NCBI GenBank assembly: GCA_046757485.1
Contig: JBHHYJ010000002.1
Coordinates: 8,073 to 72,072 of the forward strand
Reading direction: 5' to 3'
From: Gemmatimonadota bacterium
Lineage (GTDB): Bacteria; Gemmatimonadota; Gemmatimonadetes; Palauibacterales; Palauibacteraceae
DNA length: 64,000 bases
Made by a program: the position numbers and the translations under genes. This document shows, piece after piece, positions 279 through 19,468 of the stretch. Position 1 is the first letter of the stretch, and every line of letters starts with the position of its first letter. The notes beneath the pieces are model-generated. The model made no database searches. It was given only the letters and a program-made list of their open reading frames with translations, and was not told the origin of the DNA.

Positions 279-698
279 GTGGAGCTGAATCCGATGCTCC
301 TCCGCCTCTTCCTGCTCTTCACCCTCGTCCCTTTGGTGGAGCTTGTCGTCCTCATCCGGCTGGGAGCGCTTTTCGGATTCGGGCCGACGCTCCTCCTGGT
401 CCTCGGGACCGGGATGGCAGGGGCGTGGCTGGCCCGAAGGGAGGGACTGCGGAGCTGGCGCGCGGTCCAGGCCGAGCTCGGAGAGGGACGGTTGCCGGGC
501 GAGGAGCTGGTACACGGCCTCCTGATCCTGGGGGCCGGCATCGTCCTCATCACCCCGGGCGTCTTCACGGACCTGGCCGGGATTCTTCTGCTCGTGCGTC
601 CCGTCCGGACGGCGCTGATTCGGCGAGTGCGGACCCGGATGGAGCGAACCCTGGAGAGCGAGGCGGCCGACCGGCGGCCTCGGATCATCGAGGTGTAG
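279..698 (+). CDS. fxsA: FxsA family cytoplasmic membrane protein
   Basis: 139 aa. Two N-terminal TM helices (LLRLFLLFTLVPLVELVVLIRLG...), a conserved GxxGxxLxTPGxxTD-like core (LITPGVFTDLAGILLLV) and a basic tail. Probable true start is M at about 294. Confidence 0.65.
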   Translation: MELNPMLLRLFLLFTLVPLVELVVLIRLGALFGFGPTLLLVLGTGMAGAWLARREGLRSWRAVQAELGEGRLPGEELVHGLLILGAGIVLITPGVFTDLAGILLLVRPVRTALIRRVRTRMERTLESEAADRRPRIIEV

Positions 699-702
699 CG
701 GG

Positions 703-1347
703 ATGACGCGATGGGCCGTCAGTCGCTCCGGATGCCCGACCCGCGCCCGGAGGGAGCGGCCGCTCGCCGCGGCTCGCGCCTCGACGCGGAAGGGCTCGGT
801 CCGACGGCTCGCCGTGGCTCCGTTCGCGCTCGCCCTGGTGGCGCTCGCTCCGGCCGACTCGCGTCTGCCGTCGGCCTCGGGCGGGACTGTCCTCTCTACG
901 CCGTCCGCCGGCCTCTGGGCCTGCCCGACCGCGGACCCACAGAGGGTGCTCCTCAAAGCCACCTCCTCCACCGGCGGGGGGTCGGGCTACGTGGAGCTCA
1001 CGATGGCCACCTCGCCGTTCGGAGTCTCCGTCTCCCCGGCCGGACACTACCTGTTCGACCTCAAGGTGGCGGTTCAGCAGCTCCGTCGGCGACCCGGCCT
1101 CTCGTATGTCGTGTGGGTCGCCACCCCCGAGCTGGACAGGGTGAGGAAGCTCGGCGTGTTGGGAGAGGGCGGGGTCGTCTCGGGCCAGGTCGACTGGAAC
1201 AAGTTCCTCGTCTTCGTGACGGCCGAAACGAGCACGGAGGTCTCGACGTGGAAGGGCCCGATCCTCCTTACCGCTCTCTCCCCGAGCGGGCTGATGCACA
1301 CGATGCGAGGACACGGGATCTTCGAGGCACACGGCATCGGCTGCTGA
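703..1347 (+). CDS. Hypothetical secreted protein with a Met/His-rich C-terminus (possible periplasmic metal-binding protein)
   Basis: Signal-peptide-like LAVAPFALALVALAPADS. C-terminal MHTMRGHGIFEAHGIGC. The protein text is non-repetitive, whereas the overlapping frame 711-1400 is Arg/Gly low-complexity. It lies directly upstream of a multicopper oxidase. True start uncertain. Confidence 0.45.
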   Translation: MTRWAVSRSGCPTRARRERPLAAARASTRKGSVRRLAVAPFALALVALAPADSRLPSASGGTVLSTPSAGLWACPTADPQRVLLKATSSTGGGSGYVELTMATSPFGVSVSPAGHYLFDLKVAVQQLRRRPGLSYVVWVATPELDRVRKLGVLGEGGVVSGQVDWNKFLVFVTAETSTEVSTWKGPILLTALSPSGLMHTMRGHGIFEAHGIGC

Positions 1348-1416
1348 AGGCGTGGGCCGCGGCACAGCCACCCGGGAGCGTCGGTACCCGCTGCTCGTGA
1401 ACCGCTTCACCTCACC

Positions 1417-3141
1417 GTGAAGAGCCCGGGAGCCGCGTCCGCCGCTCTGCTGCTCGCCGTGCTCCCGCGCGTGACCGCGGGACAGGCCGGGGAGCGCGTG
1501 GAGACGCGGTCGGCCGGACAGGCGGAAGAGGAGGCTCTGGCCGCCCGCTGGCGGATGCCCCCCATGGAGATGGCGATGCCGATGCTCCCGGGGCTGCGGG
1601 ACCTCGTGCCCGATGTCTCCCCGTTCCTTCCCGGGCTGGGGGCAGACCTGACCGAGCTCCCGGAGGCGCGCCCTCCGTCCGTCGTCCGGCTGACCGACGG
1701 AGACACGCTCGACCTCGAGGCGGCCCTCCTGCGTCGCACGCTCGGGGACCGGGCCGTCAAGCTCTACGGTTTCAACGGAGAGCAGCCCGGCCCCCTGATT
1801 CGGGTTCGCCGGGGAGCCACCATCGTCGTCCGCTTCAGGAACCGGATCGAGCTTCCCATCACGCTCCGGTGGCACGGCGTCCGGCTGGAGAACCGTTACG
1901 ACGGCGTGCCCGGCCTGACCCAGAAGCCGGTCAGCCCCGGGGAGTCCTTCGTGTACCGGGTCCGGTTCGACGATCCCGGGCTTTTCTGGTATCACCCTCA
2001 TCAGCACGGGGAGATCGCCCAGGACCTCGGCCTGTACGGAAACATCCTCGTCGAGCCCGACCGGACGGACTACTACGCCCCGGTGAACCGGGAGGCGTTC
2101 CTCCTGCTCGACGACCTGCAGGTGGATGAGAAAGGGCTGCTGCCGTACGGGTTCGAGGCGCCGAACAACGCCCTCATGGGGCGGTTCGGCAATCTCCGCC
2201 TGGTGAACGGCGAGCCGGCGTACTCCCTCGAGGTCCACAGGGGAGAGGTCGTCCGGTTCTACGTCACCAACGCCTCGAACACGCGCACCTTCAACCTTTC
2301 CATGGGCCAGGCGCCGATGAAGCTGGTGGCCGCCGACCTGAGCAAGTACGAGCGGGAGGTCCGGGTGCCGAACGTGCCGGTCGCCCCGGGGCAGCGCTAC
2401 GTGATCGATGTCCACTTCCCCACCCCGGGCCGGGTGGCGATCACCAGCCACATCCAGGCGATGAACCATTTCGCCGGCGTGTTCGAGCCGCGGGTGGACA
2501 CGCTCGGAGCGGTGGTCGTGGACGAGAAGGCGGTGCAGGAGGAGTACGCCGAGGAGTTCGAGGAGCTCCGCGAGAACGAGGATGTGCGGGCCGACGTGGA
2601 GGGCCTGCGTGATTCCTTCGATCGACCCGTGGACCGGGAGCTGGTGCTCTCCGCCCGGGTAGGGGCCCTTCCCACCGTGGTCCTCGCGGTCATGGCGATG
2701 GACACGCTCTACTACCCACCGATCGAGTGGAACGACGCCATGCCGATGATGAACTGGCTCTCCACGGGTCGGGAGGTGCGGTGGATCGTGCACGAACCCG
2801 TCGCCGGCGGAGGGACGGCGGAGCTCCGACCGGCGGTCGGCTGGCGGTTTCGGCAGCACGACATCGTGAAGCTGCGGATTCGGAACCCCGCGCGCGGGTT
2901 CCATCCGATGCAACACCCGATTCATCTGCACGGACAGCGCTTCCTCGTCCTCGAGAGGGACGGAGTGCGGCAGTCCAACTTCGTGTGGCGGGACACGGTG
3001 CTCCTTCCGGTGGGGGCCACGGTGGATCTCCTGGTGGAGATGTCGAATCCGGGCCGCTGGATGCTGAACTGCCAGATTCCCGAGCACCTGGGATCCGGGA
3101 TGGCGATCACCTTCACGGTGCTTCCCTCTCCCGCCCGGTGA
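1417..3141 (+). CDS. Multicopper oxidase family protein (three-domain, laccase/CueO-like) with a non-canonical trinuclear copper site
   Basis: 574 aa with a Sec signal peptide. Cupredoxin motifs LRWHG, WYHPHQHG, HPIHLHG and C-terminal LNCQIPEHLGSGM. The T1 ligands Cys, His and Met are present, but the flanking T3 His residues are N and Q. GTG start. Confidence 0.85.
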   Translation: MKSPGAASAALLLAVLPRVTAGQAGERVETRSAGQAEEEALAARWRMPPMEMAMPMLPGLRDLVPDVSPFLPGLGADLTELPEARPPSVVRLTDGDTLDLEAALLRRTLGDRAVKLYGFNGEQPGPLIRVRRGATIVVRFRNRIELPITLRWHGVRLENRYDGVPGLTQKPVSPGESFVYRVRFDDPGLFWYHPHQHGEIAQDLGLYGNILVEPDRTDYYAPVNREAFLLLDDLQVDEKGLLPYGFEAPNNALMGRFGNLRLVNGEPAYSLEVHRGEVVRFYVTNASNTRTFNLSMGQAPMKLVAADLSKYEREVRVPNVPVAPGQRYVIDVHFPTPGRVAITSHIQAMNHFAGVFEPRVDTLGAVVVDEKAVQEEYAEEFEELRENEDVRADVEGLRDSFDRPVDRELVLSARVGALPTVVLAVMAMDTLYYPPIEWNDAMPMMNWLSTGREVRWIVHEPVAGGGTAELRPAVGWRFRQHDIVKLRIRNPARGFHPMQHPIHLHGQRFLVLERDGVRQSNFVWRDTVLLPVGATVDLLVEMSNPGRWMLNCQIPEHLGSGMAITFTVLPSPAR

Positions 3142-3830
3142 AGGAGAGCCCGGGCGTCGGACGGAGGTCCGCTCGTCGGCTCGCCCTCGCGGCGGCCCTG
3201 TGGGCCGGGATCGCCTGGATTCCGGCGGACGTCGCCCCGGCGAGCGGGGCAGGCGGTCCGCACGAGGCCAGGGGCCGGCTCGAAGGCCGGGTCTCCTGGA
3301 GTGGCGGCCCACTCCCCGAGTGGGAGAGCGTCACCGATGTCGTCGTGTACCTCCTCGGAGGTGACCTCGAGGACGCCACGCACACTCCGGCCGTGCCGGC
3401 CGTGCTCGCGCAGAAGGACTTCACGTACGTGCCGCACGTCCTCCCGATCGCCGTGCGCGCGGCGCTCACGATCACGAACGGCGACACGGCTCTGCACAAC
3501 ATTCACACATACAGCAAGGGCCGGCGCCGGAATCCGTCCTTCAACCGCGCCCAGCGGGCCCACACCACGCTGACGACGGCGTTCCGCGCCCCCGACAGCC
3601 TCCTCGTCCTGTGCGACATCCACCCGCAGATGGAGGCCCACATCATGGTCCTCCCGAACCCGTACTTCGCGAAGCCCGACGAGAAAGGCGCTTACACGAT
3701 CACGGAGATCCCGGCCGGCCGATACGAGCTGGTGGCCTGGCATCCGAGCTACACCTCGGTGCGAGACACGGTGGAGGTCGAGGCGGGGCGCACCACGCGG
3801 ACGGACCTCGTCTTCGCGGCCCAGCCATGA
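3138..3830 (+). CDS. Cupredoxin-like (type-1 copper) protein, secreted
   Basis: GTG start at 3138 overlaps the oxidase stop as GTGA. N-terminal GRRSARRLALAAALWAGIAW signal. His (ALHNIH) plus CDIHPQM (C-x2-H-x2-M) form a blue-copper ligand set. Confidence 0.6.
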   Translation: MKESPGVGRRSARRLALAAALWAGIAWIPADVAPASGAGGPHEARGRLEGRVSWSGGPLPEWESVTDVVVYLLGGDLEDATHTPAVPAVLAQKDFTYVPHVLPIAVRAALTITNGDTALHNIHTYSKGRRRNPSFNRAQRAHTTLTTAFRAPDSLLVLCDIHPQMEAHIMVLPNPYFAKPDEKGAYTITEIPAGRYELVAWHPSYTSVRDTVEVEAGRTTRTDLVFAAQP

Positions 3831-4068
3831 TCACGCCGCCGGCTCCCACCCCGGTCGCCCTTCGGCCTCGCCGCCGGCCATCGCCCCCCGTCCAGGTGCC
3901 GCCGCCATGGCCGCCGCACACGTGCGCGGACGGACCACGGCGAAGTACCTTCCGGTGCCAGGAGCCGGTCCGAGTCATGTCGCGGCCGCGCGCAGGGGTC
4001 TTTGGGTGCGCTCAGCCGCGACCGTGGGCCTCGAGTTCATCGTGACGACGTCGCAGCAGGAGGAAGAG

Positions 4069-5487
4069 ATGAGGCGAAGATTCCCGTCGGCTAAGAACCC
4101 TTTCACCTCGGCATGTGCCGGCGCCCTCCTCGTGGCGGCGGGTCCGGCGATCCTCGCCCACCCCGCTCTCGCCCAGCCGAGCCAGCCCGTGGTGACGCGC
4201 GGGACTCCCAACATCGAGGTCCTCGGGCACCGCCCGCTCGGGCCGGCGCTCAGCGTGGCAGACCTCGACGTCGAGCAGGAGCTTTCCCGGCCGTACGCCT
4301 ACGTCGCCCGGATGGCGTTCGGCCCGACGGGCACCAAGGGCACCGACATCATCGACATCAGCGATCCCTCGAGTCCGCGGGTGGTTTACCGGTGGCGGAT
4401 CGAGAACCAGGAGCTTCACCAACGGACGGGCGGGATGGACGTGAAGCACTTCAAGTGGAAGAACCGCTACTACGTCGTCCAATCCCTCCAGTTCGGCCAG
4501 GGAGGCCCGGACACGGACCTGGGGGCGGTCGTCCTCGACGTCACCGGACTCCCCGACGCCGCGAAGGTCAAGGAGGTGGCCCGCATCCGGGAGCCGGAGC
4601 ACCCCGGGGGTTTTCACAACATCTTCATCTACCGGCACTCCGACGGGCGGGTGTACCTCTTCACCACGATCCGGGGCCCGGGCGCCAACGTCTACGATCT
4701 GGGCAACGTCGTGGAGGGAAAGCCGGAGTCCGACTGGCGGGTGGCGAACGTCCCCGTGCCGCCGAGCCCGGAGTCCGCGGCCCTGCCGGTCCCCGGCGGG
4801 TTCTACCACGACTTCTACGTCGGCTTCCACCCGGCGACCGGCCAGGACCGTTTCTACGGGGGCGGGTCGGGCGGCTACTACATCTACGACGTGACCGACC
4901 TCCAGAGCCCGACGCTCCTCACCTCGATCACCGGCGTCTCCGGCGTCCGCTGGGGCCATACCTTCACCCCGACGCCCGATGGCAACTACGCCGTCGGCGA
5001 GACGGAGTACCAGTACGCCCCGCTCCGCATCTACGATCTCCGGCCCGGCCTGAACGGCGAGGTGCCGACGATCCGCGCCCCGATCGGCGCCTGGACAGCG
5101 AACTGGAAGAACCTGGCCCACAACCACGAGGTCCGTTGGCCGTACGTCTTCGTCTCCGGCTACCTGGACGGGCTCCAGGTGTTCGACATGCAGGACCCCG
5201 CGAACCCGATCACGGTGGGCTACTACGACACGTACCTCGGACCGTCGGCCGACCCCAGCAATCCCTCCTCCATCTTCAACGGGGCGTTCGGAGTGGACGT
5301 GCGGAACGCCGACGGCCTCATCGTCGTGAGCGACATGACGACCGGCTTCTGGACCTTCCGCATGGAGGGGTTCCAGGGGTGGAACGGCCACGACTGGGGA
5401 ATGCCGAACGTCTCCAGCGCCCAGGACTGGGAGAACGGTCCAGAGGGCGCCGTCCGGATGACGACCGACGAGGACAGCGGAGACTGA
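4069..5487 (+). CDS. Secreted LVIVD-repeat beta-propeller protein, tandem paralogue 1
   Basis: ATG at 4069 preceded by AGGAGGAAG. Signal peptide MRRRFPSAKNPFTSACAGALLVAAGPAILAHPALA. It has GLIVVSD-type LVIVD repeats. About 75-80% identity to the next two ORFs. Confidence 0.7.
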   Translation: MRRRFPSAKNPFTSACAGALLVAAGPAILAHPALAQPSQPVVTRGTPNIEVLGHRPLGPALSVADLDVEQELSRPYAYVARMAFGPTGTKGTDIIDISDPSSPRVVYRWRIENQELHQRTGGMDVKHFKWKNRYYVVQSLQFGQGGPDTDLGAVVLDVTGLPDAAKVKEVARIREPEHPGGFHNIFIYRHSDGRVYLFTTIRGPGANVYDLGNVVEGKPESDWRVANVPVPPSPESAALPVPGGFYHDFYVGFHPATGQDRFYGGGSGGYYIYDVTDLQSPTLLTSITGVSGVRWGHTFTPTPDGNYAVGETEYQYAPLRIYDLRPGLNGEVPTIRAPIGAWTANWKNLAHNHEVRWPYVFVSGYLDGLQVFDMQDPANPITVGYYDTYLGPSADPSNPSSIFNGAFGVDVRNADGLIVVSDMTTGFWTFRMEGFQGWNGHDWGMPNVSSAQDWENGPEGAVRMTTDEDSGD

Positions 5488-5494
5488 GAGGACC

Positions 5495-6892
5495 ATGAGA
5501 CACGGAACGGTGCGGGCGTGGGTGCCGGTTCTCCTGGCCGGGGGCGCCCTCGGGGCGCTCCCGCCGGCTCCGCTGGGAGCCCAGCAGGCGTACCTGGAGC
5601 GCCGGGGGGGCGGCATCGAGGTTCTCGGCCACCTGCCGCTGGGACCCGCTCTCAGCGTGGCCGACGTGGAGATCGAGCAGGATCTCTCCCGGCCGTTCGC
5701 CTACGTGGCCCGCATGCAGTATCGGGACGTCGGGGAGAAGGGGCTGGACGTCATCGACATCAGCGATCCCTCGAGTCCGCGGGTGATCTACCGGTGGCGG
5801 ATCGAGAACCAGGAGCTCCACCAGCGGACGGGCGGGATGGACGTGAAGCAGTTCAAGTGGAAGAGACGCTACTACGTCGTCCAGTCCCTCCAGTTCGGCC
5901 AGGGAGGGCCGGACCCGGATCTGGGGGCGGTCGTGCTCGACGTCACCGGGCTCCCTGATCCCGCGAAGGTGAAGGAGGTGGCCCGGATCCGGGAGCCCGA
6001 GCTGCCCGGGGGCTTCCACAACATCTTCGTGTACCGGCACTCCGACGGGCGGGTCTACCTCCTCTCCACCGTCTCCGGCCCGTTCGCCCACGTCTACGAT
6101 CTGGGGAACGTCGTGGAGGGGAAGGCCCGTGAAAGCTGGCTCGCGGCGCGGGTCCCCGTGCCCCCGGCGGCGGAGGAGCAGGGGCGTCGCACGGGCCGGC
6201 TGCGCGGCTACCACGACTTCTACGTCGGCTTCCACCCGGCCAGCGGCCAGGACCGCTTCTACGGGGGCGGCACCGGGGGATACTACGTGTACGACATCAC
6301 CGACCTGCGGAGCCCTCGCCTGCTCACCTCCATCGTGGGGGTGGCCGGCGTTCGCGGCGGACACACCTTCACGCCGACGCCCGACGGCCGCTATGCGGTC
6401 GGCGAGACGGAGTACCAGTACGCCCCGCTCCGCATCTACGATCTCCAGCCCGGCCTGAACGGCGAGCTGCCCGCGATCCGTCGCTCGATCGGCGCCTGGA
6501 CGGCGGACTGGAAGCACCTGTCCCACAACCACGAGGTCCGCTGGCCGTACGTCTTCGTCTCCGGTTACGAGGACGGGCTCCAGGTCTTCAGCCTCCTGGA
6601 TCCCGCGAACCCGGTGACCGTCGGGTACTACGACACGTACCCCGGCCCTCACAAGGTCGGGGCGTGCCGGGACCGGGTCTGCAACGGGGCGTTCGGGGTG
6701 GACGTGCGGAACGCCGACGGCCTCATCGTGGTCAGCGACTCGAGCACGGGCTTCTGGAGCTTCCGCATGGAGGGGTTCCAGGGGTGGAACGGCCGCGACT
6801 GGGGAGTGCCGAACATCTCCAGCGCCCAGGATTGGGAGAACGGTCCCGAGGGGGCCACCCGGGTCGCCGACGACGAGGATGCCGGAGGCTGA
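5495..6892 (+). CDS. Secreted LVIVD-repeat beta-propeller protein, tandem paralogue 2
   Basis: 465 aa. Signal peptide MRHGTVRAWVPVLLAGGALGAL. Long blocks of identity with paralogue 1 (IEVLGHxPLGPALSVAD, YVVQSLQFGQGGPD, WPYVFVSGY, GLIVVSD). Confidence 0.7.
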   Translation: MRHGTVRAWVPVLLAGGALGALPPAPLGAQQAYLERRGGGIEVLGHLPLGPALSVADVEIEQDLSRPFAYVARMQYRDVGEKGLDVIDISDPSSPRVIYRWRIENQELHQRTGGMDVKQFKWKRRYYVVQSLQFGQGGPDPDLGAVVLDVTGLPDPAKVKEVARIREPELPGGFHNIFVYRHSDGRVYLLSTVSGPFAHVYDLGNVVEGKARESWLAARVPVPPAAEEQGRRTGRLRGYHDFYVGFHPASGQDRFYGGGTGGYYVYDITDLRSPRLLTSIVGVAGVRGGHTFTPTPDGRYAVGETEYQYAPLRIYDLQPGLNGELPAIRRSIGAWTADWKHLSHNHEVRWPYVFVSGYEDGLQVFSLLDPANPVTVGYYDTYPGPHKVGACRDRVCNGAFGVDVRNADGLIVVSDSSTGFWSFRMEGFQGWNGRDWGVPNISSAQDWENGPEGATRVADDEDAGG

Positions 6893-6936
6893 ACCGACCT
6901 CCCAACAGACCAGCTTCCGGAGCCACAGAGGAGCCG

Positions 6937-8337
6937 ATGAAGCAGACTCGCCTTCCGAGACCGATTCCGATCTCCGCCCTTGCCCTGACCGCGACGCTCG
7001 GCGCGGGCCCGATCCCCGGCCACGGGCTTCGAGCCCAGGAGCGGGAGGGGTACCTGAGGAGGGGCACCGACAACGTCGAGGTGCTCAGCCATCTGCCTCT
7101 GGGCCCGGCGCTCAGCGTGGGCGACCTCGACATCGAGCAGGAGCTCTCGCGGCCGTTCGTCTACATCGCCCGCACCGCGGTCGGCCAGGTGGGCGAGCGG
7201 GGGATGGACGTCATCGACGTCGGCGACCCGCGCCATCCGAAGGTCATCTACCGGTGGCGGATCGAGAACCAGGAGCTCCACCAGGGTCGCGGCGGTCGGG
7301 ACCAGAAGCACTTCAAGTGGAAGGGACGCTACTACCATGCGATCTCGCTGCAGTTCGGGCAGGGCGGGCCGGACGCGGACCTGGGGGCGGTGATCCTCGA
7401 CGTGACCGGGCTCCCGGACCCGAAGAAGGTAAAGGAGGTGGCTCGCATCCGGGAGCCGGAGCTGCCCGGCGGGTTCCACAACATCTTCGTCTACCGGCAC
7501 TCCGACGGCCGGGTGTATCTGTTCACCACGCTCCGGGGGCCGGGCGCCAACGTCTACGATCTGGGGAGCCTCGTCGAGGGGAGGCCCGAGGCGGAGTGGA
7601 AGGTGGCCAACGTCCCCGTCCCGCCCGGGCCGGCGACGGGGGGCGGTCCCGGACAGGCGTTCTACCACGACTTCTACGTGGGCTTTCACCCGGCCAGCGG
7701 TCAGGACCGCTTCTACGGGGGCGGAGCGGGGGGCTACTACGTCTACGACGTCACCGACCTCCGGGAGCCGAAGCTCCTCACCTCGATCACGGGCGTCGCG
7801 GGGGTCCGCTGGGGCCACACCTTCACCCCGAGCCCCGACGGACGCTACGCGGTCGGCGAGACGGAGTACCAGTACGCCCCGCTTCGCGTCTACGATCTCA
7901 AGCCGGGCCTGGACGGTGAGGTGCCGACGATCCGCTCCTCGATCGGAGCCTGGACGGCGAACTGGCGGAACCTGGCCCACAACCACGAGGTCCGCTGGCC
8001 GTACGTCTTCGTCTCCGCCTACGAGGACGGTCTCCAGGTCTTCGGCCTGATGGACCCGAAGAATCCCGTCACCGTGGGCTACTACGACACGTACATCGGC
8101 CCCCACAAGGTGGGGCTGTGCGGCGACCGGATCTGCAACGGGGCGTTCGGGGTGGACGTGCGGAACGCCGACGGCCTCATCGTGGTGGGCGACATGAGCT
8201 CGGGCTTCTGGGCGTTTCGCCTGGAGGGTTTCGACGGCTGGAACGGGCACGACTGGGGGATGCCGAACATCTCCAGCGCCCAGGACTGGGAGCACGGCCC
8301 GGAGGACGCGGCGGCCGGGATGGAGGGCGGCCGCTAA
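6937..8337 (+). CDS. Secreted LVIVD-repeat beta-propeller protein, tandem paralogue 3
   Basis: ATG at 6937 with AGGAGC upstream. Signal peptide MKQTRLPRPIPISALALTATLGA. Same conserved blocks as paralogues 1 and 2. The upstream part of track ORF 6664-8337 is a spurious extension. Confidence 0.7.
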   Translation: MKQTRLPRPIPISALALTATLGAGPIPGHGLRAQEREGYLRRGTDNVEVLSHLPLGPALSVGDLDIEQELSRPFVYIARTAVGQVGERGMDVIDVGDPRHPKVIYRWRIENQELHQGRGGRDQKHFKWKGRYYHAISLQFGQGGPDADLGAVILDVTGLPDPKKVKEVARIREPELPGGFHNIFVYRHSDGRVYLFTTLRGPGANVYDLGSLVEGRPEAEWKVANVPVPPGPATGGGPGQAFYHDFYVGFHPASGQDRFYGGGAGGYYVYDVTDLREPKLLTSITGVAGVRWGHTFTPSPDGRYAVGETEYQYAPLRVYDLKPGLDGEVPTIRSSIGAWTANWRNLAHNHEVRWPYVFVSAYEDGLQVFGLMDPKNPVTVGYYDTYIGPHKVGLCGDRICNGAFGVDVRNADGLIVVGDMSSGFWAFRLEGFDGWNGHDWGMPNISSAQDWEHGPEDAAAGMEGGR

Positions 8338-8440
8338 GCCGGTCCGGCCCGTCCGGTCTGACTTCCTCTCAACGAGCTGCACCGTAACCGACCGTCCGCG
8401 GCGTCAAGCGGAGGCGGGAACCCGCGGCGAACCGCAAGCG

Positions 8441-9148
8441 TTGACGGTCAACAACCTGGCGCCGAACGACAGCCTGGCTTCGGCGATCAACGCGGCCACC
8501 TTCGTGCTCAAAGCGGACGTGATCAGCGCCAGCTGGGGGATCGGTCCGGCACCCGACCCCGCGATCGCCCAACAGCTCGAGTGGGCCGTCAAGGACGGAC
8601 GGAAGCCCGACCTGCCCTTCTTTCCCCCTCTGGGCACGCCCGTGGTCTTCTCGGCCGGCAACACGAGGGGTTCCGTCGCCTTCCCTGCCAGCGACTCGAA
8701 CGCGATCGCTGTGAGCGGGCTGGACCGCACGGGGGCCTTGTGGGAAGACCCCGACCCAACCCGCGGCAGCAACTTCGGGGCCGAGATCGAGATCGCCGCC
8801 TTCAGCGGCAGCGGCGCGGCGTGCTTCGGGGAGATCACGACGACGGACCTCTCGGGGGCGGAGGGGTGCAACAACGGGCCGGGGGGCAACGTGAACTACA
8901 CCACAGGGTTCAGCGGGACCTCGGCAGCGGCCCCGCAGGTGGCCGGCGCCATCGCGCTGCTCCTGCAGAGCGAGCCAGGCCTCACGGTCGCACAGGTCCG
9001 CCAGCGGCTGGCGAGCTCGGCGGACAAGGGGAATACAGGCTTCTGGAACAATTCCCTCAGGTTCGGCGCGGGGAAGCTGAACGTGGGCGCCCTGCTCGGC
9101 GTGTGGCCGCCGCCCGGGAGCTGTGCCCCGAACCAGGTCGTCTGCTGA
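8441..9148 (+). pseudogene. 5'-truncated subtilisin-like serine protease (peptidase S8) remnant
   Basis: Contains the S8 oxyanion-hole region VVFSAGN and the catalytic Ser motif GTSAAAPQVAGAIALL. It lacks the N-terminal signal/propeptide, the Asp (DTG) and the His (HGT) blocks. The only start is TTG at 8441, and the frame stays open upstream into paralogue 3 without a start codon. Confidence 0.55.
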
Positions 9149-9222
9149 GGGTGGAGGCGACGCTCGAGCGCTGCCGTCGCGTGTATAGAACGCCAGCCTG
9201 TGACGGGCACGGTAGCCGGCGC

Positions 9223-10419
9223 ATGCGCTTCACCGGACGGCCTGGGTCCGGGCGAGGGAGGCTCCCTCTGACCGTGATGGTTCTCGGCCTGTCGCTTCCC
9301 GGCTGCTCGGACTCGACCGGCCCCGACGAGCCCATCGGACCCGAGGGTCCGTGGCTTTCGGTCCGCGTGGCGAAAGGCGGGGCGTTCACCTGCGGCCTGA
9401 CCGCCGAGCGGGAAGCCTTCTGTTGGGGAGGGAACGCGGATGGGCAGCTGGGGAACGGGACCCGCGAGGGAAGCCTCAGTCCGGGGCCGGTGGTCGGCGG
9501 GCTCACCTTCGAGCAGATCAGCCCGGGGATTGCGCACACCTGCGCCGTGACGCCGGAGGGGAAGGCGTTCTGCTGGGGAAGGAACGACCGCACCGGCGCG
9601 CTGGGGGACGGAACGACGATGGACCGGCTGGCGCCGACCCCCGTGGCCGGCGGGCTCAGCTTCCGACAGATCAGTGCCGGGAGCGCTCACACCTGCGCGC
9701 TGACGCCGGCGGGGGAGGCGTTCTGCTGGGGGAACGACGCGCACGGCCAGCTCGGAGATGGACAGAGCAACGGCGGCCCGAACCCGCTCCCGGCTCCGGT
9801 GGCCGGTGGCCTCACCTTCCAGCAGATCAGTGCGGGCCAGTTCGGGACCTGCGGCCTGACACGTGAGGGGAAGGCGTTCTGCTGGGGCGCCAACCACAAG
9901 GGCACGCTCGGGGACGGGACGATGACGGACCGGGCCACCCCCGGCCCCGTGGCGGGAGGTTTGAGCTTCGCCCGGATCAGCGCAGGGCTCCGCCACGTGT
10001 GTGGCGTGACCCCAGAGGGGGAAGCTTATTGCTGGGGTAGGAACAGCTTAGGTGCCCTGGGCGATGGCGCGATGGTCGATCGCCCGGTACCCACCCGCGT
10101 GGCCACCGAGCTACGGTTCCAACAGATCAGTGCGGGCGAGCAGAGCTGTGCGCTGACGCGCGAGGGTCAAGCCTTCTGCTGGGGGGACAACAGCTTCGGC
10201 GAGCTGGGCGACGGCACGACGATGCATCGGCTCACGCCGACGCCGGTGGCCGGCGGGCTCAGCTTCCACGAGATCAGCACCGGCTTCAGCAGCAGCTGTG
10301 GAGTGACCCTCGACGGAGAGGCGTTCTGTTGGGGCGCTCGTGGGCTCGTCGGTGACGGGACCAACATGGATCGCCTCGTGCCCACCCGAATCCCGCCACC
10401 GCAGACCCGGCAGGGTTAG
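9223..10419 (+). CDS. RCC1-repeat (regulator of chromosome condensation-like) beta-propeller lipoprotein
   Basis: About seven repeats of the form GxxHTCALT(x)G(x)AFCWGxNxxGQLGDG. N-terminal MRFTGRPGSGRGRLPLTVMVLGLSLPGC ends in a lipobox. The upstream part of track ORF 8581-10419 overlaps the S8 remnant in another frame and is rejected. Confidence 0.75.
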   Translation: MRFTGRPGSGRGRLPLTVMVLGLSLPGCSDSTGPDEPIGPEGPWLSVRVAKGGAFTCGLTAEREAFCWGGNADGQLGNGTREGSLSPGPVVGGLTFEQISPGIAHTCAVTPEGKAFCWGRNDRTGALGDGTTMDRLAPTPVAGGLSFRQISAGSAHTCALTPAGEAFCWGNDAHGQLGDGQSNGGPNPLPAPVAGGLTFQQISAGQFGTCGLTREGKAFCWGANHKGTLGDGTMTDRATPGPVAGGLSFARISAGLRHVCGVTPEGEAYCWGRNSLGALGDGAMVDRPVPTRVATELRFQQISAGEQSCALTREGQAFCWGDNSFGELGDGTTMHRLTPTPVAGGLSFHEISTGFSSSCGVTLDGEAFCWGARGLVGDGTNMDRLVPTRIPPPQTRQG

Positions 10420-10438: not shown

Positions 10439-12505
10439 TCATGATTTCGACGTTCTATCCCCGTCCCCGGCCGCTTCCTTCGGCTTCACCTGGATGAGCC
10501 GGTCGATGAGGAGTCGGCCGGCCCCGCTCCTTACCTCCAGGTGCAGCTCCCCGGGCCGCCGCGGCGTGATCTCGAAGTCGAACGTCTCCCCGATGCTCAC
10601 CGTCCGCTCCGCGGGCACCAGCGCTCGCTGGTGGGCCGGCAGGTCCCAGCCGTCCTCGGCCACCGGCCGCCACAGGACCGGGGCGCCGCCCCGGACGAGA
10701 CGCACCCGCAGGTTGCCGTTTCCCAACGTGATGTTCATGAGCCGCAGTCGGTAGGTCGTTCCGACCCGAAACTCCGTCGGCCCGGGCTTGGACGTCCCGT
10801 TCAACTGAGGTCCCTGGCCCGTCGGGGAGAGCCCGAGCAGCAGGATCCGATCCGTCTCGGGGTCCCACTCCTCGCCCTCGTCCAGCACCACGAAGGCCCC
10901 GTACAGCCCCGAGCCCTGCTGGCGCAGGTCGCTCACGTGGGTGTGGTACATGTAGCTTCCGGCCCTGGGCGGCGTGATCCGCATCTCGAAGGAGTCTCCC
11001 GGCATGATCGCCGGGGTCAGCTTCTTCGGGTAGCCGCTCGCCCCCGCCACCCCGTCGAAGTAGCTCTCGATCTCCAGCCCGTGCCAGTGGACCTGGGTGG
11101 GCTCCGGGGTCCGGTTGATCACCGTCACGCTGGTGGGTTCTCCCTTCCACAGGACGATGGGGGAGCCGGGCAGGCGCACGGAGTCCGGGGGCGGCTCCCG
11201 CTCCCCCTCCTGGAGGACGTAGGCGTAGCGTTTCTGGAACGGCTTCTGGAGGAACGCGCGGGTCGCGGAGTCGGCCGGCACGGAGTCCGCCTGCACGAAG
11301 AGGCGCAGCCGCCGGCGCCGCGGCTCCCGGGGAACCCATCCCTCGGGCGGCCGGATGTAGGTGAAGAGGAGGAGGCCTCCCATGCCAGTCTCCGCGTGGT
11401 GCTCGGCGTCCCCCTCGTGCCCGACGAAGATCTTCCGGAAGCGGACCGCCTCCGTCTCCTCCTCCCCCGGCCGGAGAGAGGGGTTGGGGACGACGTGGAA
11501 GCTGTTGTGGCAGTGGAAGATCCACCCTCCTGGCCGGTCCGGCGACCAGACGATCTTCATCGTGGTCCCCGGCGCCATCCGCTCGGTGACCGCCATGCGC
11601 CGCTGGGCCAGCCAGTAGATCGTGTCCCGGCCGATGTCGCCGCGGGAGTCCACCCGGTAGAAGAAGCCGTGCAGGTGCATCGGGTGGACCGCACCCGAGG
11701 CGTTGATCAGTCGCCAGCGGATCGAGTCTCCGAGCGCGTAGGTGAAGCGCTCGGTGAGCGGCCACGGCCGCCCGTTGATCGTCAGGAACTCCTTGCCGAA
11801 ATCGGGCTCGCCGTTCGGGTGCTTGCCGGGGATCCAGATCTGCATCACGAAAACGCGGTCCGTGGGCGGGCCCGCGGCGTCCGGTGGATCCACGATGAGC
11901 GCGCCGGCCAGGGGGGCGTCCTCGGCGATCCGGATCGCCGTGGGCGAGCCCTTCAGACGCCCCCGGTAGTAGTAGGTCCCCTCGGCGTCGGCCGGAAAGC
12001 GAACCTCCCGGCTCTCCCCCGGCCGCACGACGAGGCTGTCCATCGCCGCCACCCGGCGGGCCGCGAGCCCCCACACGACGAGATCCGCATCCAGCGGGTT
12101 CCGCACCGTCGCCCGGATCTCGGTCCCCAGGGGAACGCGGATCATCGGGCCGGGAATCTGGAGCTCCTTCCCGGCCTCCCCGAACGCCAGGACCTCGCCT
12201 CCCGGCTCTTCCTCGCCCAGCAGGTGCCACACGCCGCGCCGCACCTCGAGCTCCAGGGTCAGCACGCCGTCTCGTAGCGTGCCGGCCGGCGTCTGGTTGT
12301 CGTTCCACCCCACGCTCGGAAGGCGACCGACCGACGAGAGCTCGCCTCCCGCGGCGTTTCCTCGCACATCGGAGAGCGCGGGGGGCGCCGACGGCCAATC
12401 CGAGCCGGGGCCCGACGGCCCCGGGCCGGGGAGCCACACCCAGAGACCCGCGAGCCCCGCCAAGCTCAACCAGGTGAAACGCTGTCCAAGGCTTTCGCCC
12501 CTCAT
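10439..12505 (-). CDS. Multicopper oxidase family protein, four cupredoxin-like domains with unusual motif order
   Basis: 688 aa with signal peptide. HPMHLHG and HCHNSFH (T1/T3 set) at about aa 265-330 precede VHWHG and YMYHTHV (T2/T3 set) at about aa 470-520. The first and last cupredoxin-like domains lack copper ligands (LVVWGLAARR in place of HWHG). Confidence 0.85.
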   Translation of the reverse strand: MRGESLGQRFTWLSLAGLAGLWVWLPGPGPSGPGSDWPSAPPALSDVRGNAAGGELSSVGRLPSVGWNDNQTPAGTLRDGVLTLELEVRRGVWHLLGEEEPGGEVLAFGEAGKELQIPGPMIRVPLGTEIRATVRNPLDADLVVWGLAARRVAAMDSLVVRPGESREVRFPADAEGTYYYRGRLKGSPTAIRIAEDAPLAGALIVDPPDAAGPPTDRVFVMQIWIPGKHPNGEPDFGKEFLTINGRPWPLTERFTYALGDSIRWRLINASGAVHPMHLHGFFYRVDSRGDIGRDTIYWLAQRRMAVTERMAPGTTMKIVWSPDRPGGWIFHCHNSFHVVPNPSLRPGEEETEAVRFRKIFVGHEGDAEHHAETGMGGLLLFTYIRPPEGWVPREPRRRRLRLFVQADSVPADSATRAFLQKPFQKRYAYVLQEGEREPPPDSVRLPGSPIVLWKGEPTSVTVINRTPEPTQVHWHGLEIESYFDGVAGASGYPKKLTPAIMPGDSFEMRITPPRAGSYMYHTHVSDLRQQGSGLYGAFVVLDEGEEWDPETDRILLLGLSPTGQGPQLNGTSKPGPTEFRVGTTYRLRLMNITLGNGNLRVRLVRGGAPVLWRPVAEDGWDLPAHQRALVPAERTVSIGETFDFEITPRRPGELHLEVRSGAGRLLIDRLIQVKPKEAAGDGDRTSKS

Positions 12506-17276: not shown

Positions 17277-18083
17277 GTGACGCCCACCTCCCGGGACCGG
17301 CCGCCGACCCGGCGGATCCCGGAGCTCACCCTGGCCGTTCTGGTGGGAGTGTACCTGGCCGTCTCCATCGTGGCCTACACGGATCATCCACGTCACGGAT
17401 CCGACCCACCGCTGACCGACCTCGAGCGACGCGGCCTCGGCGTATGGCGTAGCCACGACTGCCAGGCGTGCCACCAGCTCTACGGCTTCGGCGGATTCCT
17501 GGGCCCCGACCTCACGAATCGGGTCACCGACGGGACACCGGATGCGGAGCTCCGCTCCATCCTCGAGGAGGGGGCCCGAGCCATGCCGGCCTTCCACCTC
17601 TCGCCAGCGGAGCGGCGCGCGGTCCTCGCGTTCCTGCGGGCCGTCGACCGCACGGGCCAGTCGCAGCCCACGCCGGTCGCGGCCCGCCGCCGAGTAAACC
17701 CGACCGAGCAGCTCGAGCGCCTGGCCGGCGCATGGTTGGAGAGCGGAGCTCCGGATCTGACCCGCGGCGAGCGTCACGGGCTCCAGGCATGGAGCCGCTT
17801 CGGCTGCGGTGCCTGCCACACGCCGTTCACTCTCGGTCGGCTGAGGGCGCCGGATCTGTCGCGCGCCGCCGTGGACCGTTCCGTTTCGGGCCTGCGCCGG
17901 GTCCTCCGGCACGGACGGCGAAACATGCCCCCCTACCCTCGGGCGGCGGAGCAGGCGGAGGAGCTGAGCGCCTTCCTCACGTGGGTCTCCTTGAATCGGG
18001 CCGAGCTGAGGGCTCTGAACGACCGCATGCTGGAGCGGGAGGCGTTTTCCTGGAGTGCCGTGCCATGGTGGGAGTACCGGTGA
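17277..18083 (+). CDS. Membrane-anchored di-haem c-type cytochrome
   Basis: Two CxxCH motifs (CQACH, CGACH). N-terminal TM helix LTLAVLVGVYLAVSIV. Met residues consistent with axial ligands. Confidence 0.75.
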   Translation: MTPTSRDRPPTRRIPELTLAVLVGVYLAVSIVAYTDHPRHGSDPPLTDLERRGLGVWRSHDCQACHQLYGFGGFLGPDLTNRVTDGTPDAELRSILEEGARAMPAFHLSPAERRAVLAFLRAVDRTGQSQPTPVAARRRVNPTEQLERLAGAWLESGAPDLTRGERHGLQAWSRFGCGACHTPFTLGRLRAPDLSRAAVDRSVSGLRRVLRHGRRNMPPYPRAAEQAEELSAFLTWVSLNRAELRALNDRMLEREAFSWSAVPWWEYR

Positions 18084-19468
18084 CGGCGGCCGACGAAGGA
18101 CGCCCTCTCGCCTGGGCCGCCCTTCTGGCCCTCGGCGCGTGCGCCGGGACGCTCGTCGCCGGTGTGGGAGCCGCGCTCGCCTACACCAGGTGGGAAGCGC
18201 TCCTGCGAGGCGCTCACCTGACGTTGCCGCAGCTCCGATCCGTTCACGAATCGTTCGCCTTCGCGTGGGTGTTTCTGGGTGGCGTCGCCGTGGTGTATCT
18301 CTACCTCTTCCGCGACTGTCGCCCCCCCGCCCGGTGGGCCAGGCGACGCCTCCTGTGGCACGTGGGGCTGTGGGCGACCGCGGGCATCGGCATACTCGGG
18401 ACGCTCCTGGCGGGGCGCTTCACGGGGCGGGAGTACTTCGGCTACGACCCCGCTTTCTCCGTCCTCATCGGGCTCGGGTGGCTCTTGTTCGCCTGGAACT
18501 TCTTCGGACGGGGCGGGGCGTCCCTCCGTGGTCAGCCGGTGTACGTCTACATGTGGTCGGTGGCGATTCCGCTCTTCCTCGTCACCTTCGCGGAGGGGCA
18601 CCTCTACCTGCTGGAGCTCGTGAGCCGACGGCCGGTGCGGGATATCGCCATCCAGTGGAAGTCCAACGGCACGCTGGTCGGATCCTTCAACCTGCTCGCC
18701 TACGGCTCGTTGATGTACGTTTCCGCCTGTATCCAGGGGAGCGGGCGGTACGCTCGCTCCCGCACCGCGTTCAGCCTCTTCTTCGTCAGCCTCCTGAACA
18801 CGTTCACCAACTACGGACACCACACGTACCATCTCCCCCAGAGCTCCTGGATCCACTGGATCAGCTTCCTCGCCAGCATGCTCGAGGCGATCATCCTGGC
18901 CAAGGTGTTCCTGGATCTCATCGGGATGCTGAAGACCCGTCGAGCGGTGGCCGACCGGTCGGTGCCCGGGCGGCTCATCCGGTGGGGGACGGTATGGACG
19001 TTTCTGATGTTGCTCCTCGCGGTGGCCCTCGCGATTCCTCCTCTCAACGCGTTGGTCCACGGGACACACGTGGTCGTCGCTCATTCGATGGGGAGCATGA
19101 TCGGCATCGACTCCCTGATCCTGTGGGCCGGCCTCGCGTACCTGATCGGGCACCTGCTGGGCCCGCAACATCCCGCCCTGAACGGTGGACGGGTTCGGAT
19201 GGCGCTCCCCCTCCTCAGCGTCTGCCTCCTCGTGTTCCTGCTCGCCTACCTCGTCCGCGGCGCCGCCGCCGGGTGGGTCCGGTACATGGGACCGTCCGCC
19301 CCCGACCCTTCCCGGGTGTTCGAGCTCTTTCCCCTCGTCATGCTCGTCTCCGGCATCGGGCTGGCGGGGACCGCGCTGTGGGTCATCGGCCCATGGATGA
19401 TCGCCCTGGCGCCGGTGGCGATCGGGAGCCGTCGAGAACGCCGGCCGATACGGCCACCCGCACGGTGA
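18065..19468 (+). CDS. Haem-copper oxidase superfamily subunit I-like protein (NorB/CcoN-like, divergent)
   Basis: About 467 aa with about 12 predicted TM helices. Conserved His in helix II (SVHESF), EGH, an HH pair (NYGHHTYH), and an atypical helix-X pattern LVHGTHVVVAHSMGSM instead of HxH. The start overlaps the cytochrome c gene by 19 nt. Confidence 0.55.
   Translation: MVGVPVTAADEGRPLAWAALLALGACAGTLVAGVGAALAYTRWEALLRGAHLTLPQLRSVHESFAFAWVFLGGVAVVYLYLFRDCRPPARWARRRLLWHVGLWATAGIGILGTLLAGRFTGREYFGYDPAFSVLIGLGWLLFAWNFFGRGGASLRGQPVYVYMWSVAIPLFLVTFAEGHLYLLELVSRRPVRDIAIQWKSNGTLVGSFNLLAYGSLMYVSACIQGSGRYARSRTAFSLFFVSLLNTFTNYGHHTYHLPQSSWIHWISFLASMLEAIILAKVFLDLIGMLKTRRAVADRSVPGRLIRWGTVWTFLMLLLAVALAIPPLNALVHGTHVVVAHSMGSMIGIDSLILWAGLAYLIGHLLGPQHPALNGGRVRMALPLLSVCLLVFLLAYLVRGAAAGWVRYMGPSAPDPSRVFELFPLVMLVSGIGLAGTALWVIGPWMIALAPVAIGSRRERRPIRPPAR

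Follow-up and report, generated by a model that had tools for sequence, protein, structure and literature searches.

Multicopper oxidases (MCOs) are defined by a coupled reaction, in which substrate oxidation at the T1 copper site is linked to O2 reduction at a trinuclear cluster (TNC). The His-Cys-His tripeptide is the path along which electrons move from T1 to the TNC, and the canonical four-electron reduction of O2 requires all eight His ligands of the cluster. MCO-like proteins without oxidase function have been described, such as FtsP/SufI (PMC2661564) and the insect MCORP (PMC4203857). The locus reported here is carried by a 64,000-nucleotide stretch of DNA from a Gemmatimonadota bacterium, referred to as the window. 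It encodes an MCO in which the T1 site is complete and three of the eight TNC histidines are replaced, followed immediately by the gene of a small blue copper protein.

Copper ligands of the variant MCO

The MCO gene and the segments relevant to copper binding are as follows.

1417..3141, + strand: variant three-domain MCO, 574 aa, GTG start, N-terminal signal peptide
1549..1596, + strand: conserved Met-rich N-terminal motif WRMPPMEMAMPMLPGL (aa 45-60), with W[RK]xPP in 89/120 homologues
1867..1878, + strand: motif 1, RWHG (aa 151-154), R151 in place of the T2 His, H153 (T3) retained
1993..2001, + strand: motif 2, HPH (aa 193-195), T3 His H193 and H195 both retained
2914..2931, + strand: motif 3, HPIHLH (aa 500-505), T1 His500, T2 His503 and T3 His505 all retained
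3067..3102, + strand: motif 4, NCQIPEHLGSGM (aa 551-562), N551 and Q553 in place of two T3 His, Cys552, His557 and Met562 retained

The ORF is identical to the NCBI protein [quoted passage not shown]. It features the Pfam domains Cu-oxidase_3, Cu-oxidase and Cu-oxidase_2 (104.8, 48.8 and 103.4 bits, each exceeding its cut-off) in the order that identifies the three-domain MCO superfamily, and matches 183 MCO chains in the PDB. Its nearest named families are CueO, the best NCBIfam match, and CopA. The NCBIfam scores fall below the equivalog cut-offs of both CueO (NF008205, 133.3 versus 525 bits) and CopA-PcoA (TIGR01480, 116.8 versus 479 bits). The protein is likewise outside the FtsP/SufI family (NF008135, 78.1 versus 581 bits), as it possesses T1 ligands, and outside the NirK family (TIGR02376, 48.2 versus 296.3 bits), as it has three domains and an Asn before the Cys. 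Domains 2 and 3 are separated by an insert of about 130 aa. The 55-aa segment around the W[RK]xPP motif contains 14-17% Met, compared with 3.5-3.9% elsewhere in the protein.

Ligand columns were set by HMMER alignments to the solved MCOs 6vow, 4f7k and 6vox, in which the window sequence "tlRwHgvrl" is paired with "tiHwHgirl", and "wmlNCQipeHlgsgM" with "wmfHCHvidHmetgl". The original prediction held that RWHG replaces HWHG and that Asn and Gln replace the T3 His pair, and proposed that a shifted motif assignment would overturn this view. Such a shift is ruled out, because R, N and Q fall exactly on the His columns of the solved MCOs. The prediction that T1 and HxxHxH are intact also holds, as all their ligands are retained. 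The TNC has therefore lost three of its eight His, replaced by R151 (T2) and by N551 and Q553 (the T3 pair flanking the T1 Cys), and keeps H153, H193, H195, H503 and H505. The T1 site, consisting of H500, C552, H557 and the axial M562, has the His, Cys, His and axial Met composition of laccase/CueO-type MCOs. Blue MCOs feature ten His and one Cys, distributed in the motifs HxHG, HxH, HxxHxH and HCHxxxHxxxxM; the window MCO has seven His and the Cys, and Asn-Cys-Gln (NCQ) in place of the His-Cys-His tripeptide.

Conservation and phylogeny of the NCQ clade

Among the 120 closest homologues, the R, N and Q triplet is found in 30 proteins and is invariant in all of them (30/30), while H, H and H occupy the same positions in the other 90 (90/90), which feature all ten His. 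The three substitutions thus co-occur perfectly in this set. Although the pairwise identity of the R/N/Q variants ranges from 51 to 99%, the 30 top-ranked variants share without exception the T1 ligands, the five remaining TNC His, and Asp162 and Glu556, two further conserved residues; in all, 139 of 549 columns are invariant among the variants. In neighbour-joining trees, which carry no bootstrap support, the NCQ proteins are monophyletic, and L089, an intermediate that combines HWHG with NCQ, is basal within them. The NCQ MCO is hence no single case, and belongs to a conserved monophyletic clade nested in an uncharacterised MCO family of Gemmatimonadota and Rhodothermales.

Unusual motifs, taken by themselves, could stem from a sequencing or assembly error or from a decaying pseudogene. 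This explanation is vanishingly improbable and was discarded, since the ORF is intact, the same triplet recurs in 30 independent clusters and, across different assemblies, in more than 20 loci, and 139 of 549 columns are invariant.

The invariance of the five TNC His in the 30 top-ranked variants suggests that the cluster site, instead of just standing empty, may have been remodelled; some metal may still bind, and a residual or altered O2 chemistry is conceivable. Along this line, the NCQ proteins could still reduce O2 at a non-canonical cluster, with Asn and Gln amide oxygens and water standing in for the missing His, and the cupredoxin described below would be a mere electron donor. The conservation of the five His, Asp162 and Glu556 fits this explanation, as does the fact that the T3 replacements are always Asn and Gln, polar and potentially coordinating residues, and never hydrophobic ones. 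However, the cluster lacks three of its eight ligands, among them the two bridge His and one T2 ligand out of only two. Moreover, an Arg at the T2 position presumably cannot ligate Cu, and would either occupy the site or repel the metal. A fourth His is lost in one clade member, P0263 (HPIHLQG). We know of no natural precedent for an O2-reducing MCO with such a cluster, and none was found in our literature search. Continued O2 reduction therefore appears unlikely.

The downstream cupredoxin gene

The gene next to the MCO encodes a small secreted protein.

3138..3830, + strand: secreted type-1 cupredoxin with a C-terminal CarboxypepD_reg beta-sandwich, ligands H120, C159, H162 and M165 (nt 3495-3632)
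3138..3141, + strand: GTGA start/stop overlap of the MCO and cupredoxin genes, 4 nt

The original prediction placed the start of a blue-copper protein gene inside the oxidase stop codon. The overlap at 3138-3141 is real: GTG 3138 is the sole start that preserves the cupredoxin signal peptide, and the protein translated from it is exactly equal to a 230-aa NCBI protein. At E <= 0.01, the single sequence matched none of the Pfam cupredoxin models, and a single-sequence PDB search returned nothing useful. A profile search succeeded, identifying 5fc9 (E 6.5e-8) as well as amicyanin, pseudoazurin and plastocyanin (1e-4 to 1e-2), with the ligands aligned. In alignment A1, all 21 homologues share H120, N121, C159, H162 and M165. 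Both the ligand pattern and the homology to solved blue copper proteins mark the product of 3138-3830 as a genuine type-1 cupredoxin. Further profile matches are the cupredoxin domains at the C-terminus of the NirK structures 6hbe and 9cck. The CarboxypepD_reg domain (PF13620, 35.1 versus a gathering threshold of 32.3 bits) spans aa 167-225.

Linkage of the MCO and cupredoxin genes

In an unbiased scan of genome loci, a cupredoxin gene is adjacent to the MCO in 4/14 variant and 0/69 canonical loci (Fisher p = 5e-4). No cupredoxin lies beside the MCO in the 70 canonical metagenome loci. Overall, adjacency is observed in 4 of about 20 variant loci, compared with 0 of about 139 canonical loci. 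In the reciprocal direction, all four cupredoxin homologues that were looked up (4/4) map directly downstream of an NCQ-type MCO. The genomic context of P0141, a distant cupredoxin homologue, is uninformative. A 4-nt overlap, either ATGA or GTGA, joins the two genes in 6/8 pairs (the window locus, L007, L011, L088, L089 and L091). The coupled gene pair, originally proposed for this locus alone, is therefore conserved, tightly coupled and confined to the NCQ form, as evidenced by the locus scans and the overlaps.

Two loci continue into further redox genes. Both L091 and the basal locus L089 encode a second cupredoxin, accompanied in L089 by a Cyt_bd_oxida_I-like protein and three c-type cytochromes, and in L091 by a cytochrome-c/propeller protein. 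NCQ loci without an adjacent cupredoxin resemble canonical loci, as they feature a propeller and the accessory protein. Since adjacency is limited to about one fifth of the unbiased NCQ loci, the partner may not be universal within the clade. As a partner of the entire family the cupredoxin was rejected, being absent from all canonical and most NCQ loci.

A copper protein paired with its own electron carrier recalls the logic of NirK and pseudoazurin. This arrangement is compatible with a new catalytic metal site, formed by the remnant five-His pocket and Arg151 and supplied with electrons through the cupredoxin and T1, for instance for the reduction of an anionic oxidant such as nitrite or superoxide. 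The strict conservation of the five His and of the introduced Arg across sequences 51-99% identical also points in this direction. Nonetheless, the loss of both His flanking the Cys removes the covalent path that connects T1 to the second site in NirK and in MCOs, P0263 dispenses with a fourth His, and conserved substrate-related genes are not found nearby. We regard a new site of this kind as distinctly improbable.

The accessory protein and beta-propeller genes

Four additional genes surround the pair.

703..1347, + strand: accessory protein up214, 214 aa, start uncertain, beta-sandwich core at aa ~78-200, Met/His tail "LMHTMRGHG"
4069..5487, + strand: beta-propeller paralogue 1 (LVIVD / choice-of-anchor-B related), start 4069 likelier than 3907
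5495..6892, + strand: beta-propeller paralogue 2, 465 aa, seven-bladed, LVIVD 25.7 versus 20.2 bits (Pfam)
6937..8337, + strand: beta-propeller paralogue 3, 466 aa, identical to P0144

The window MCO is part of a larger conserved module, which includes the upstream 214-aa protein and the three downstream propeller genes. In this family, the MCO is normally found in a module with an eight-His beta-propeller and a small beta-sandwich protein. A homologue of up214 immediately precedes the MCO gene in 58/69 canonical and 8/14 variant loci, and in some NCQ-type proteins (P0028, P0068, P0078 and P0118) the accessory protein is fused to the NH2 terminus of the MCO. Its tail is conserved as "SRSGxMHTMAGHGPF" (alignment A3). 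No Pfam or NCBIfam model matches up214. An AF2 model, moderate overall and built from a shallow alignment (A4), predicts an all-beta core (pLDDT 80-94) and has no significant fold match.

The Pfam LVIVD cut-off is exceeded by propeller paralogue 2 only, and the propellers score 36-61 against a TIGR04312 cut-off of 100. Paralogue 2 features eight invariant His (H46, H109, H175, H182, H240, H290, H344 and H346; alignment A2, 65 sequences). Its AF2 model is seven-bladed (pLDDT 85), and the best fold match is 5hrm, a binuclear-metal propeller. Neither single-sequence nor profile searches of the PDB with the propeller gave useful matches. ORF clustering of the flanks, confounded by antisense ORFs (70% GC) and single linkage, revealed no useful further conserved neighbours, and a promoter/terminator scan found nothing above shuffle expectation. 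Literature searches retrieved no paper in which LVIVD and multicopper oxidases are treated together, no relevant paper on Gemmatimonadota MCOs, and nothing on a propeller, beta-sandwich and MCO module; a search on Fet3p T3-His mutants returned unrelated work. The LVIVD papers retrieved propose adhesion roles only. The propeller, the beta-sandwich protein with the MHTMAGHG tail and the MCO make up a widespread, uncharacterised three-gene module in Gemmatimonadota and Rhodothermales.

As the propeller and accessory genes are retained in most NCQ loci, as they are in canonical loci, the NCQ protein could have a non-redox role, either binding or sequestering copper or acting as a structural partner of the propeller module. 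Precedents are FtsP/SufI (PMC2661564) and insect MCORP (PMC4203857), and binding of Cu(I) might be all that the Met-rich segments do. In contrast with FtsP and MCORP, however, the four T1 ligands are invariant in the NCQ proteins. In addition, the specific, translationally coupled link to an electron-carrier cupredoxin, joined by cytochromes in L089, indicates a redox function. A purely structural or copper-storing protein is, accordingly, not a probable outcome.

Proposed mechanism and significance

The MCO and the cupredoxin would seem to form a copper-handling or electron-transfer pair, as initially suggested. Because T1 is kept, three of the eight TNC His are lost, and the cupredoxin is encoded directly downstream, electrons are probably passed to the partner and not to oxygen. 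On balance, we favour the view that the NCQ MCO is an O2-reducing oxidase turned into a T1-based electron-transfer enzyme, which exchanges electrons with its own cupredoxin.

The NCQ clade would derive from a canonical O2-reducing MCO family, in which both His of the His-Cys-His bridge (now N551 and Q553) may have been lost first and the T2 His (now R151) later, while the blue T1 site and the Met-rich NH2 terminus would have been kept in a periplasmic protein. Single electrons could still be taken or given at T1, and four-electron delivery to O2 at a canonical trinuclear cluster would no longer be possible. T1 would trade electrons with the type-1 cupredoxin, whose adjoining downstream gene is co-translated with that of the MCO, and this cupredoxin may in turn connect the MCO to other periplasmic or membrane redox proteins. 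Given the Met-rich segments and the CueO-like relatives, Cu(I) or another metal ion is a reasonable candidate for the reducing substrate; its use would amount to O2-independent metal oxidation.

A broader reading of all these features is tentative, and we hold it to be possible rather than probable. The oxidase may have become a dehydrogenase, with the substrate still oxidised at T1 and the electrons flowing from there to the cupredoxin and then to cytochrome bd-like or cytochrome c proteins in place of O2, within an undescribed periplasmic copper-redox system that also includes the propeller and accessory proteins; or the pocket of five His plus Arg may be a new copper active site. A possible role of such a copper-redox system is the O2-independent oxidation of Cu(I) or other metals.

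The NCQ clade is a natural, conserved lineage that has dispensed with precisely the His-Cys-His bridge and one T2 ligand while retaining T1. If the proposed function is confirmed, its members would provide bioinorganic chemistry with a naturally occurring MCO that is "T1-only" or has a perturbed cluster, a model for the rewiring of an oxidase into an electron-transfer chain, and possibly a route for O2-free periplasmic metal oxidation. In databases, all such MCOs are named just "multicopper oxidase family protein", a label that would mislead metabolic inference, for instance when laccase potential or the oxidation of Mn, Fe or Cu is deduced in MAG surveys.

Comparison with known systems

Metallo-oxidases of the CueO and Thermus thermophilus MCO type, with 2xu9 and 1kv7 among the PDB matches of the window MCO, share with it the three cupredoxin domains, the four motif positions, a T1 site with an axial Met and Met-rich segments. 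The window MCO differs from this type in the replacement of three of the eight TNC His, the insert of about 130 aa, the dedicated cupredoxin and the propeller/accessory module. The canonical sister family, exemplified by the uncharacterised proteins of Rhodocaloribacter litoris (P0104) and Rubrivirga (L083), is about 54% identical to the window MCO over the full length and has the same insert, Met-rich NH2 terminus and propeller-accessory-MCO module. In contrast, its members feature all ten His and the Cys, and a cupredoxin is never adjacent (0 of about 139 loci).

FtsP/SufI, insect MCORP and the plant SKU5-like proteins likewise combine the MCO fold with a loss of copper ligands and, presumably, of oxidase activity. 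In those proteins few or no copper ligands remain, and T1 is lost as well, whereas in the window MCO T1 is complete and only the O2 site is degraded. NirK and its partners pseudoazurin or azurin represent a cupredoxin-fold T1 enzyme exchanging electrons with a small type-1 cupredoxin, as predicted for the window pair. NirK, however, is a two-domain trimer in which a His-Cys bridge leads to a T2 site of three His, while the window MCO has three domains and has lost the bridge His. The window cupredoxin shares the His...Cys-x2-His-x2-Met ligands and the His-Asn dipeptide with amicyanin, plastocyanin, pseudoazurin and 5fc9, and differs from all of them in carrying an extra C-terminal CarboxypepD_reg beta-sandwich.

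Copper ligands of the multicopper oxidase

The window has a G+C content of ~70%. It encodes an accessory protein, a multicopper oxidase (MCO) and a cupredoxin in succession:

703-1347, + strand: accessory protein, 214 aa (~190 aa in the family)
1417-3141, + strand: MCO, 574 aa, with Pfam domains Cu-oxidase_3, Cu-oxidase and Cu-oxidase_2
3138-3830, + strand: cupredoxin

The MCO is identical to the NCBI entry 'multicopper oxidase family protein [Gemmatimonadota bacterium]', encoded on an 84-kb MAG contig. HMMER alignments to the solved MCOs 6vow, 4f7k and 6vox pair RWHG with HWHG and NCQIPEHLGSGM with HCHVIDHMETGL, so the motif assignment of the original prediction is not shifted. T1 (blue copper), T2 and T3 roles are those of the established CueO/laccase assignment, as listed for the T1 site and the trinuclear copper cluster (TNC):

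Lost TNC ligands: T2 His, now R151; T3 His, now N551; T3 His, now Q553
Retained TNC ligands: H153, H193, H195 and H505 (T3); H503 (T2)
Retained T1 site: H500, C552, H557 and M562

Of the eight TNC ligands three are gone, among them both residues joining the T1 Cys to the T3 coppers, and the predicted combination of a degenerate TNC and an intact T1 site is borne out. The N-terminal segment is Met-rich (14-17% Met) and the protein carries a conserved 'EWNDAMPMMN' insert, features that recall the Met-rich regions by which CueO recruits Cu(I) (PMC11494321). Because of the Met-rich segments and CueO-like relatives, one might guess by analogy that Cu(I) or another metal is the substrate.

Conservation and origin of the NCQ clade

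Arg, Asn and Gln occur together at the three altered positions in 30 of the 120 best homologues, the three His in the other 90, and mixed cases are absent from this set. Identity is 51-99% among the variants and ~54% between them and the canonical group. The T1 ligands, the five remaining TNC His, Asp162 and Glu556 are invariant in the 30 variants, which have a two-residue insertion at 472-473 in common as well. NJ trees, which carry no support values, were built from the MCOs of 80 genome loci plus additional metagenome loci; in them, sequences with Asn-Cys-Gln for His-Cys-His (NCQ) form a single clade. The recurrence of the triplet excludes an artefact. NCQ proteins make up a conserved clade, and the altered ligands are no accident.

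Canonical four-electron O2 reduction would be lost in NCQ proteins. Judged from sequence, the pocket is unlikely to be empty, given that five TNC His never vary among the 30 top-ranked variants. The same invariance speaks for two live alternatives, residual non-canonical O2 chemistry and a new catalytic site in the TNC pocket.

The L089 MCO, which branches at the clade base, combines HWHG (T2 His retained) with NCQ, suggesting that loss of the bridge His preceded that of the T2 His. In P0263, a 50%-identity cluster representative of the NCQ clade, a fourth His, the last of motif 3, is also gone (HPIHLQG). P0309, a separate relative, shows a single loss (QCH, HWHG intact). TNC-ligand erosion may have occurred more than once. 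Clustering of 1.84 billion proteins at 50% leaves essentially a single representative of the clade, so the lineage is young and narrow; named carriers are Gemmatimonadota (Longimicrobiales and Gemmatimonadales).

Three Longimicrobiales assemblies carry two NCQ-type loci each (L009/L013, L012/L016 and L015/L018). Within each pair, one locus has a fused accessory protein and a propeller gene directly upstream, and the other is unfused and close to several propeller paralogues. None of the best 80 loci was a canonical copy from these assemblies, in which the NCQ form may therefore have taken the place of the canonical one.

The downstream cupredoxin

The cupredoxin gene had been predicted to start inside the oxidase stop, and the GTGA overlap was confirmed at 3138-3141. 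GTG 3138 is the sole in-frame start that keeps the signal peptide and yields the 230-aa NCBI protein exactly. With the single sequence, no Pfam cupredoxin model matched at E <= 0.01; CarboxypepD_reg alone did. Residues H120, N121, C159, H162 and M165, which make up a His-Asn...Cys-x2-His-x2-Met signature, are invariant in 21 homologues. Among PDB entries, the family profile hits 5fc9, 'Blue (Type 1) copper domain protein' (E 6.5e-8); amicyanin, pseudoazurin, plastocyanin and, in two NirK structures, the C-terminal cupredoxin domain are matched too, with ligands aligned. By the invariant ligands and the 5fc9 match, the predicted blue-copper protein is a type-1 cupredoxin.

Cupredoxin genes directly downstream of MCO genes
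Genome scan: variant 4/14 (window, L007, L008, L011); canonical 0/69; Fisher p = 5e-4
Metagenome scan: variant 0/7; canonical 0/70
Pooled (our arithmetic): variant 4/~20; canonical 0/~139; p about 2e-4

By reciprocal exact-sequence look-up, 4/4 cupredoxin homologues lie immediately downstream of an NCQ-type MCO, and six of eight MCO-cupredoxin pairs feature a 4-nt start/stop overlap (ATGA or GTGA). In the loci scanned the cupredoxin is found only with the NCQ form, of which it is a specific partner. Cupredoxin-linked members are scattered over the clade, including its two most basal branches (in trees without support values), a distribution consistent with an ancestral link that some lineages later lost or moved elsewhere.

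At two of the cupredoxin-linked loci, further redox genes follow:

L089, operon at 372-8863: intermediate MCO (HWHG, HCH to NCQ), cupredoxin, second cupredoxin, Cyt_bd_oxida_I-like membrane protein and three c-type cytochromes, one with an EB_dh domain; both cupredoxins are cupredoxin-CarboxypepD_reg proteins
L091: MCO, cupredoxin, cytochrome-c/propeller protein and second cupredoxin

We propose that the T1 site of the NCQ MCO exchanges electrons with the co-translated cupredoxin. In this periplasmic electron-transfer chain the MCO would serve as the oxidising half, or possibly as the reducing one. The intact T1 site and the electron-carrier nature of the partner make a solely structural or Cu-binding function less probable.

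Genomic context

A three-part module (beta-propeller, accessory protein and MCO) is the usual setting of both canonical and NCQ MCOs; no literature on it was found. The propeller, the most constant neighbour of the MCO family, lies within 3 kb of the MCO in 57/69 canonical and 9/14 variant loci. The accessory protein, directly upstream in the window, adjoins the MCO in 58/69 and 8/14, respectively. The window carries three tandem propeller paralogues (74-77% mutual identity):

4069-5487, + strand: beta-propeller
5495-6892, + strand: beta-propeller
6937-8337, + strand: beta-propeller

A search at E <= 1e-5 gave 2786 homologues of these highly conserved proteins (440-470 aa, about 55-75% identity across phyla), and their only annotations are 'LVIVD repeat-containing' or hypothetical. 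The AF2 model has seven blades (pLDDT 85); its best fold match is 5hrm, a binuclear-metal phosphotriesterase, and the remaining matches are generic WD40 proteins. Eight invariant His are kept by all three paralogues (alignment A2), and the propeller looks like an uncharacterised metalloprotein.

The accessory protein consists of a beta-sandwich core and a conserved C-terminal Met/His tail, 'SRSGxMHTMAGHGPF' (alignment A3). In some NCQ proteins (P0028/P0068/P0078/P0118) it is fused, without this tail, to the MCO N-terminus. Fold searches with it gave no significant match; the weak top hits (E 0.025-0.09), the periplasmic Cu-binding proteins HftA and FetP, are a lead only.

Other genes in the window include:

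8441-9148, + strand: Peptidase_S8 fragment (within 8441-10419; provisional boundaries), overlapping a long ORF in another frame whose C-terminal part is an RCC1-repeat propeller (WD40_RLD, 322 bits)
10439-12505, - strand: second, distant MCO-family gene, 688 aa, with unusual Pfam domain order
17277-19468, + strand: c-type cytochrome ORF with two CxxCH motifs (Cytochrome_CBB3 domains), overlapping the start of a COX1-family ORF (haem-copper oxidase or NOR-like; provisional boundaries)
22425-23543, - strand: third MCO-family gene, two-domain, 372 aa

In the 688-aa protein, Cu-oxidase_2 (aa 241-338) precedes Cu-oxidase_3 (aa 445-543), and the HCH and HPMHLHG motifs come before HWHG and YHTH. The 372-aa product scores best in NCBIfam against copper nitrite reductase (97 bits vs a cut-off of 296) and is thus either NirK-like or a two-domain MCO. 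Copper and haem redox genes abound around 17277-19468, three MCO genes being close by.

Comparison with known families

The original observation is confirmed, and its interpretation as a copper-handling or electron-transfer pair is supported and extended at the sequence level. The NCQ form is relevant to bioinorganic chemistry and to the annotation of metagenomic MCOs. By fold and domains the window protein belongs to the MCO superfamily; it lacks the full complement of ligands that defines functional blue oxidases and scores far under the equivalog cut-offs of CueO, CopA, FtsP and NirK. FtsP/SufI and insect MCORP are devoid of most or all copper ligands, T1 included, whereas the NCQ MCO keeps T1, and its degeneration is therefore of a different kind. 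The closest functional resemblance of the NCQ MCO and its cupredoxin would be, by analogy, to the NirK-pseudoazurin enzyme/carrier pair, although NirK retains the His-Cys bridge that the NCQ MCO lacks.
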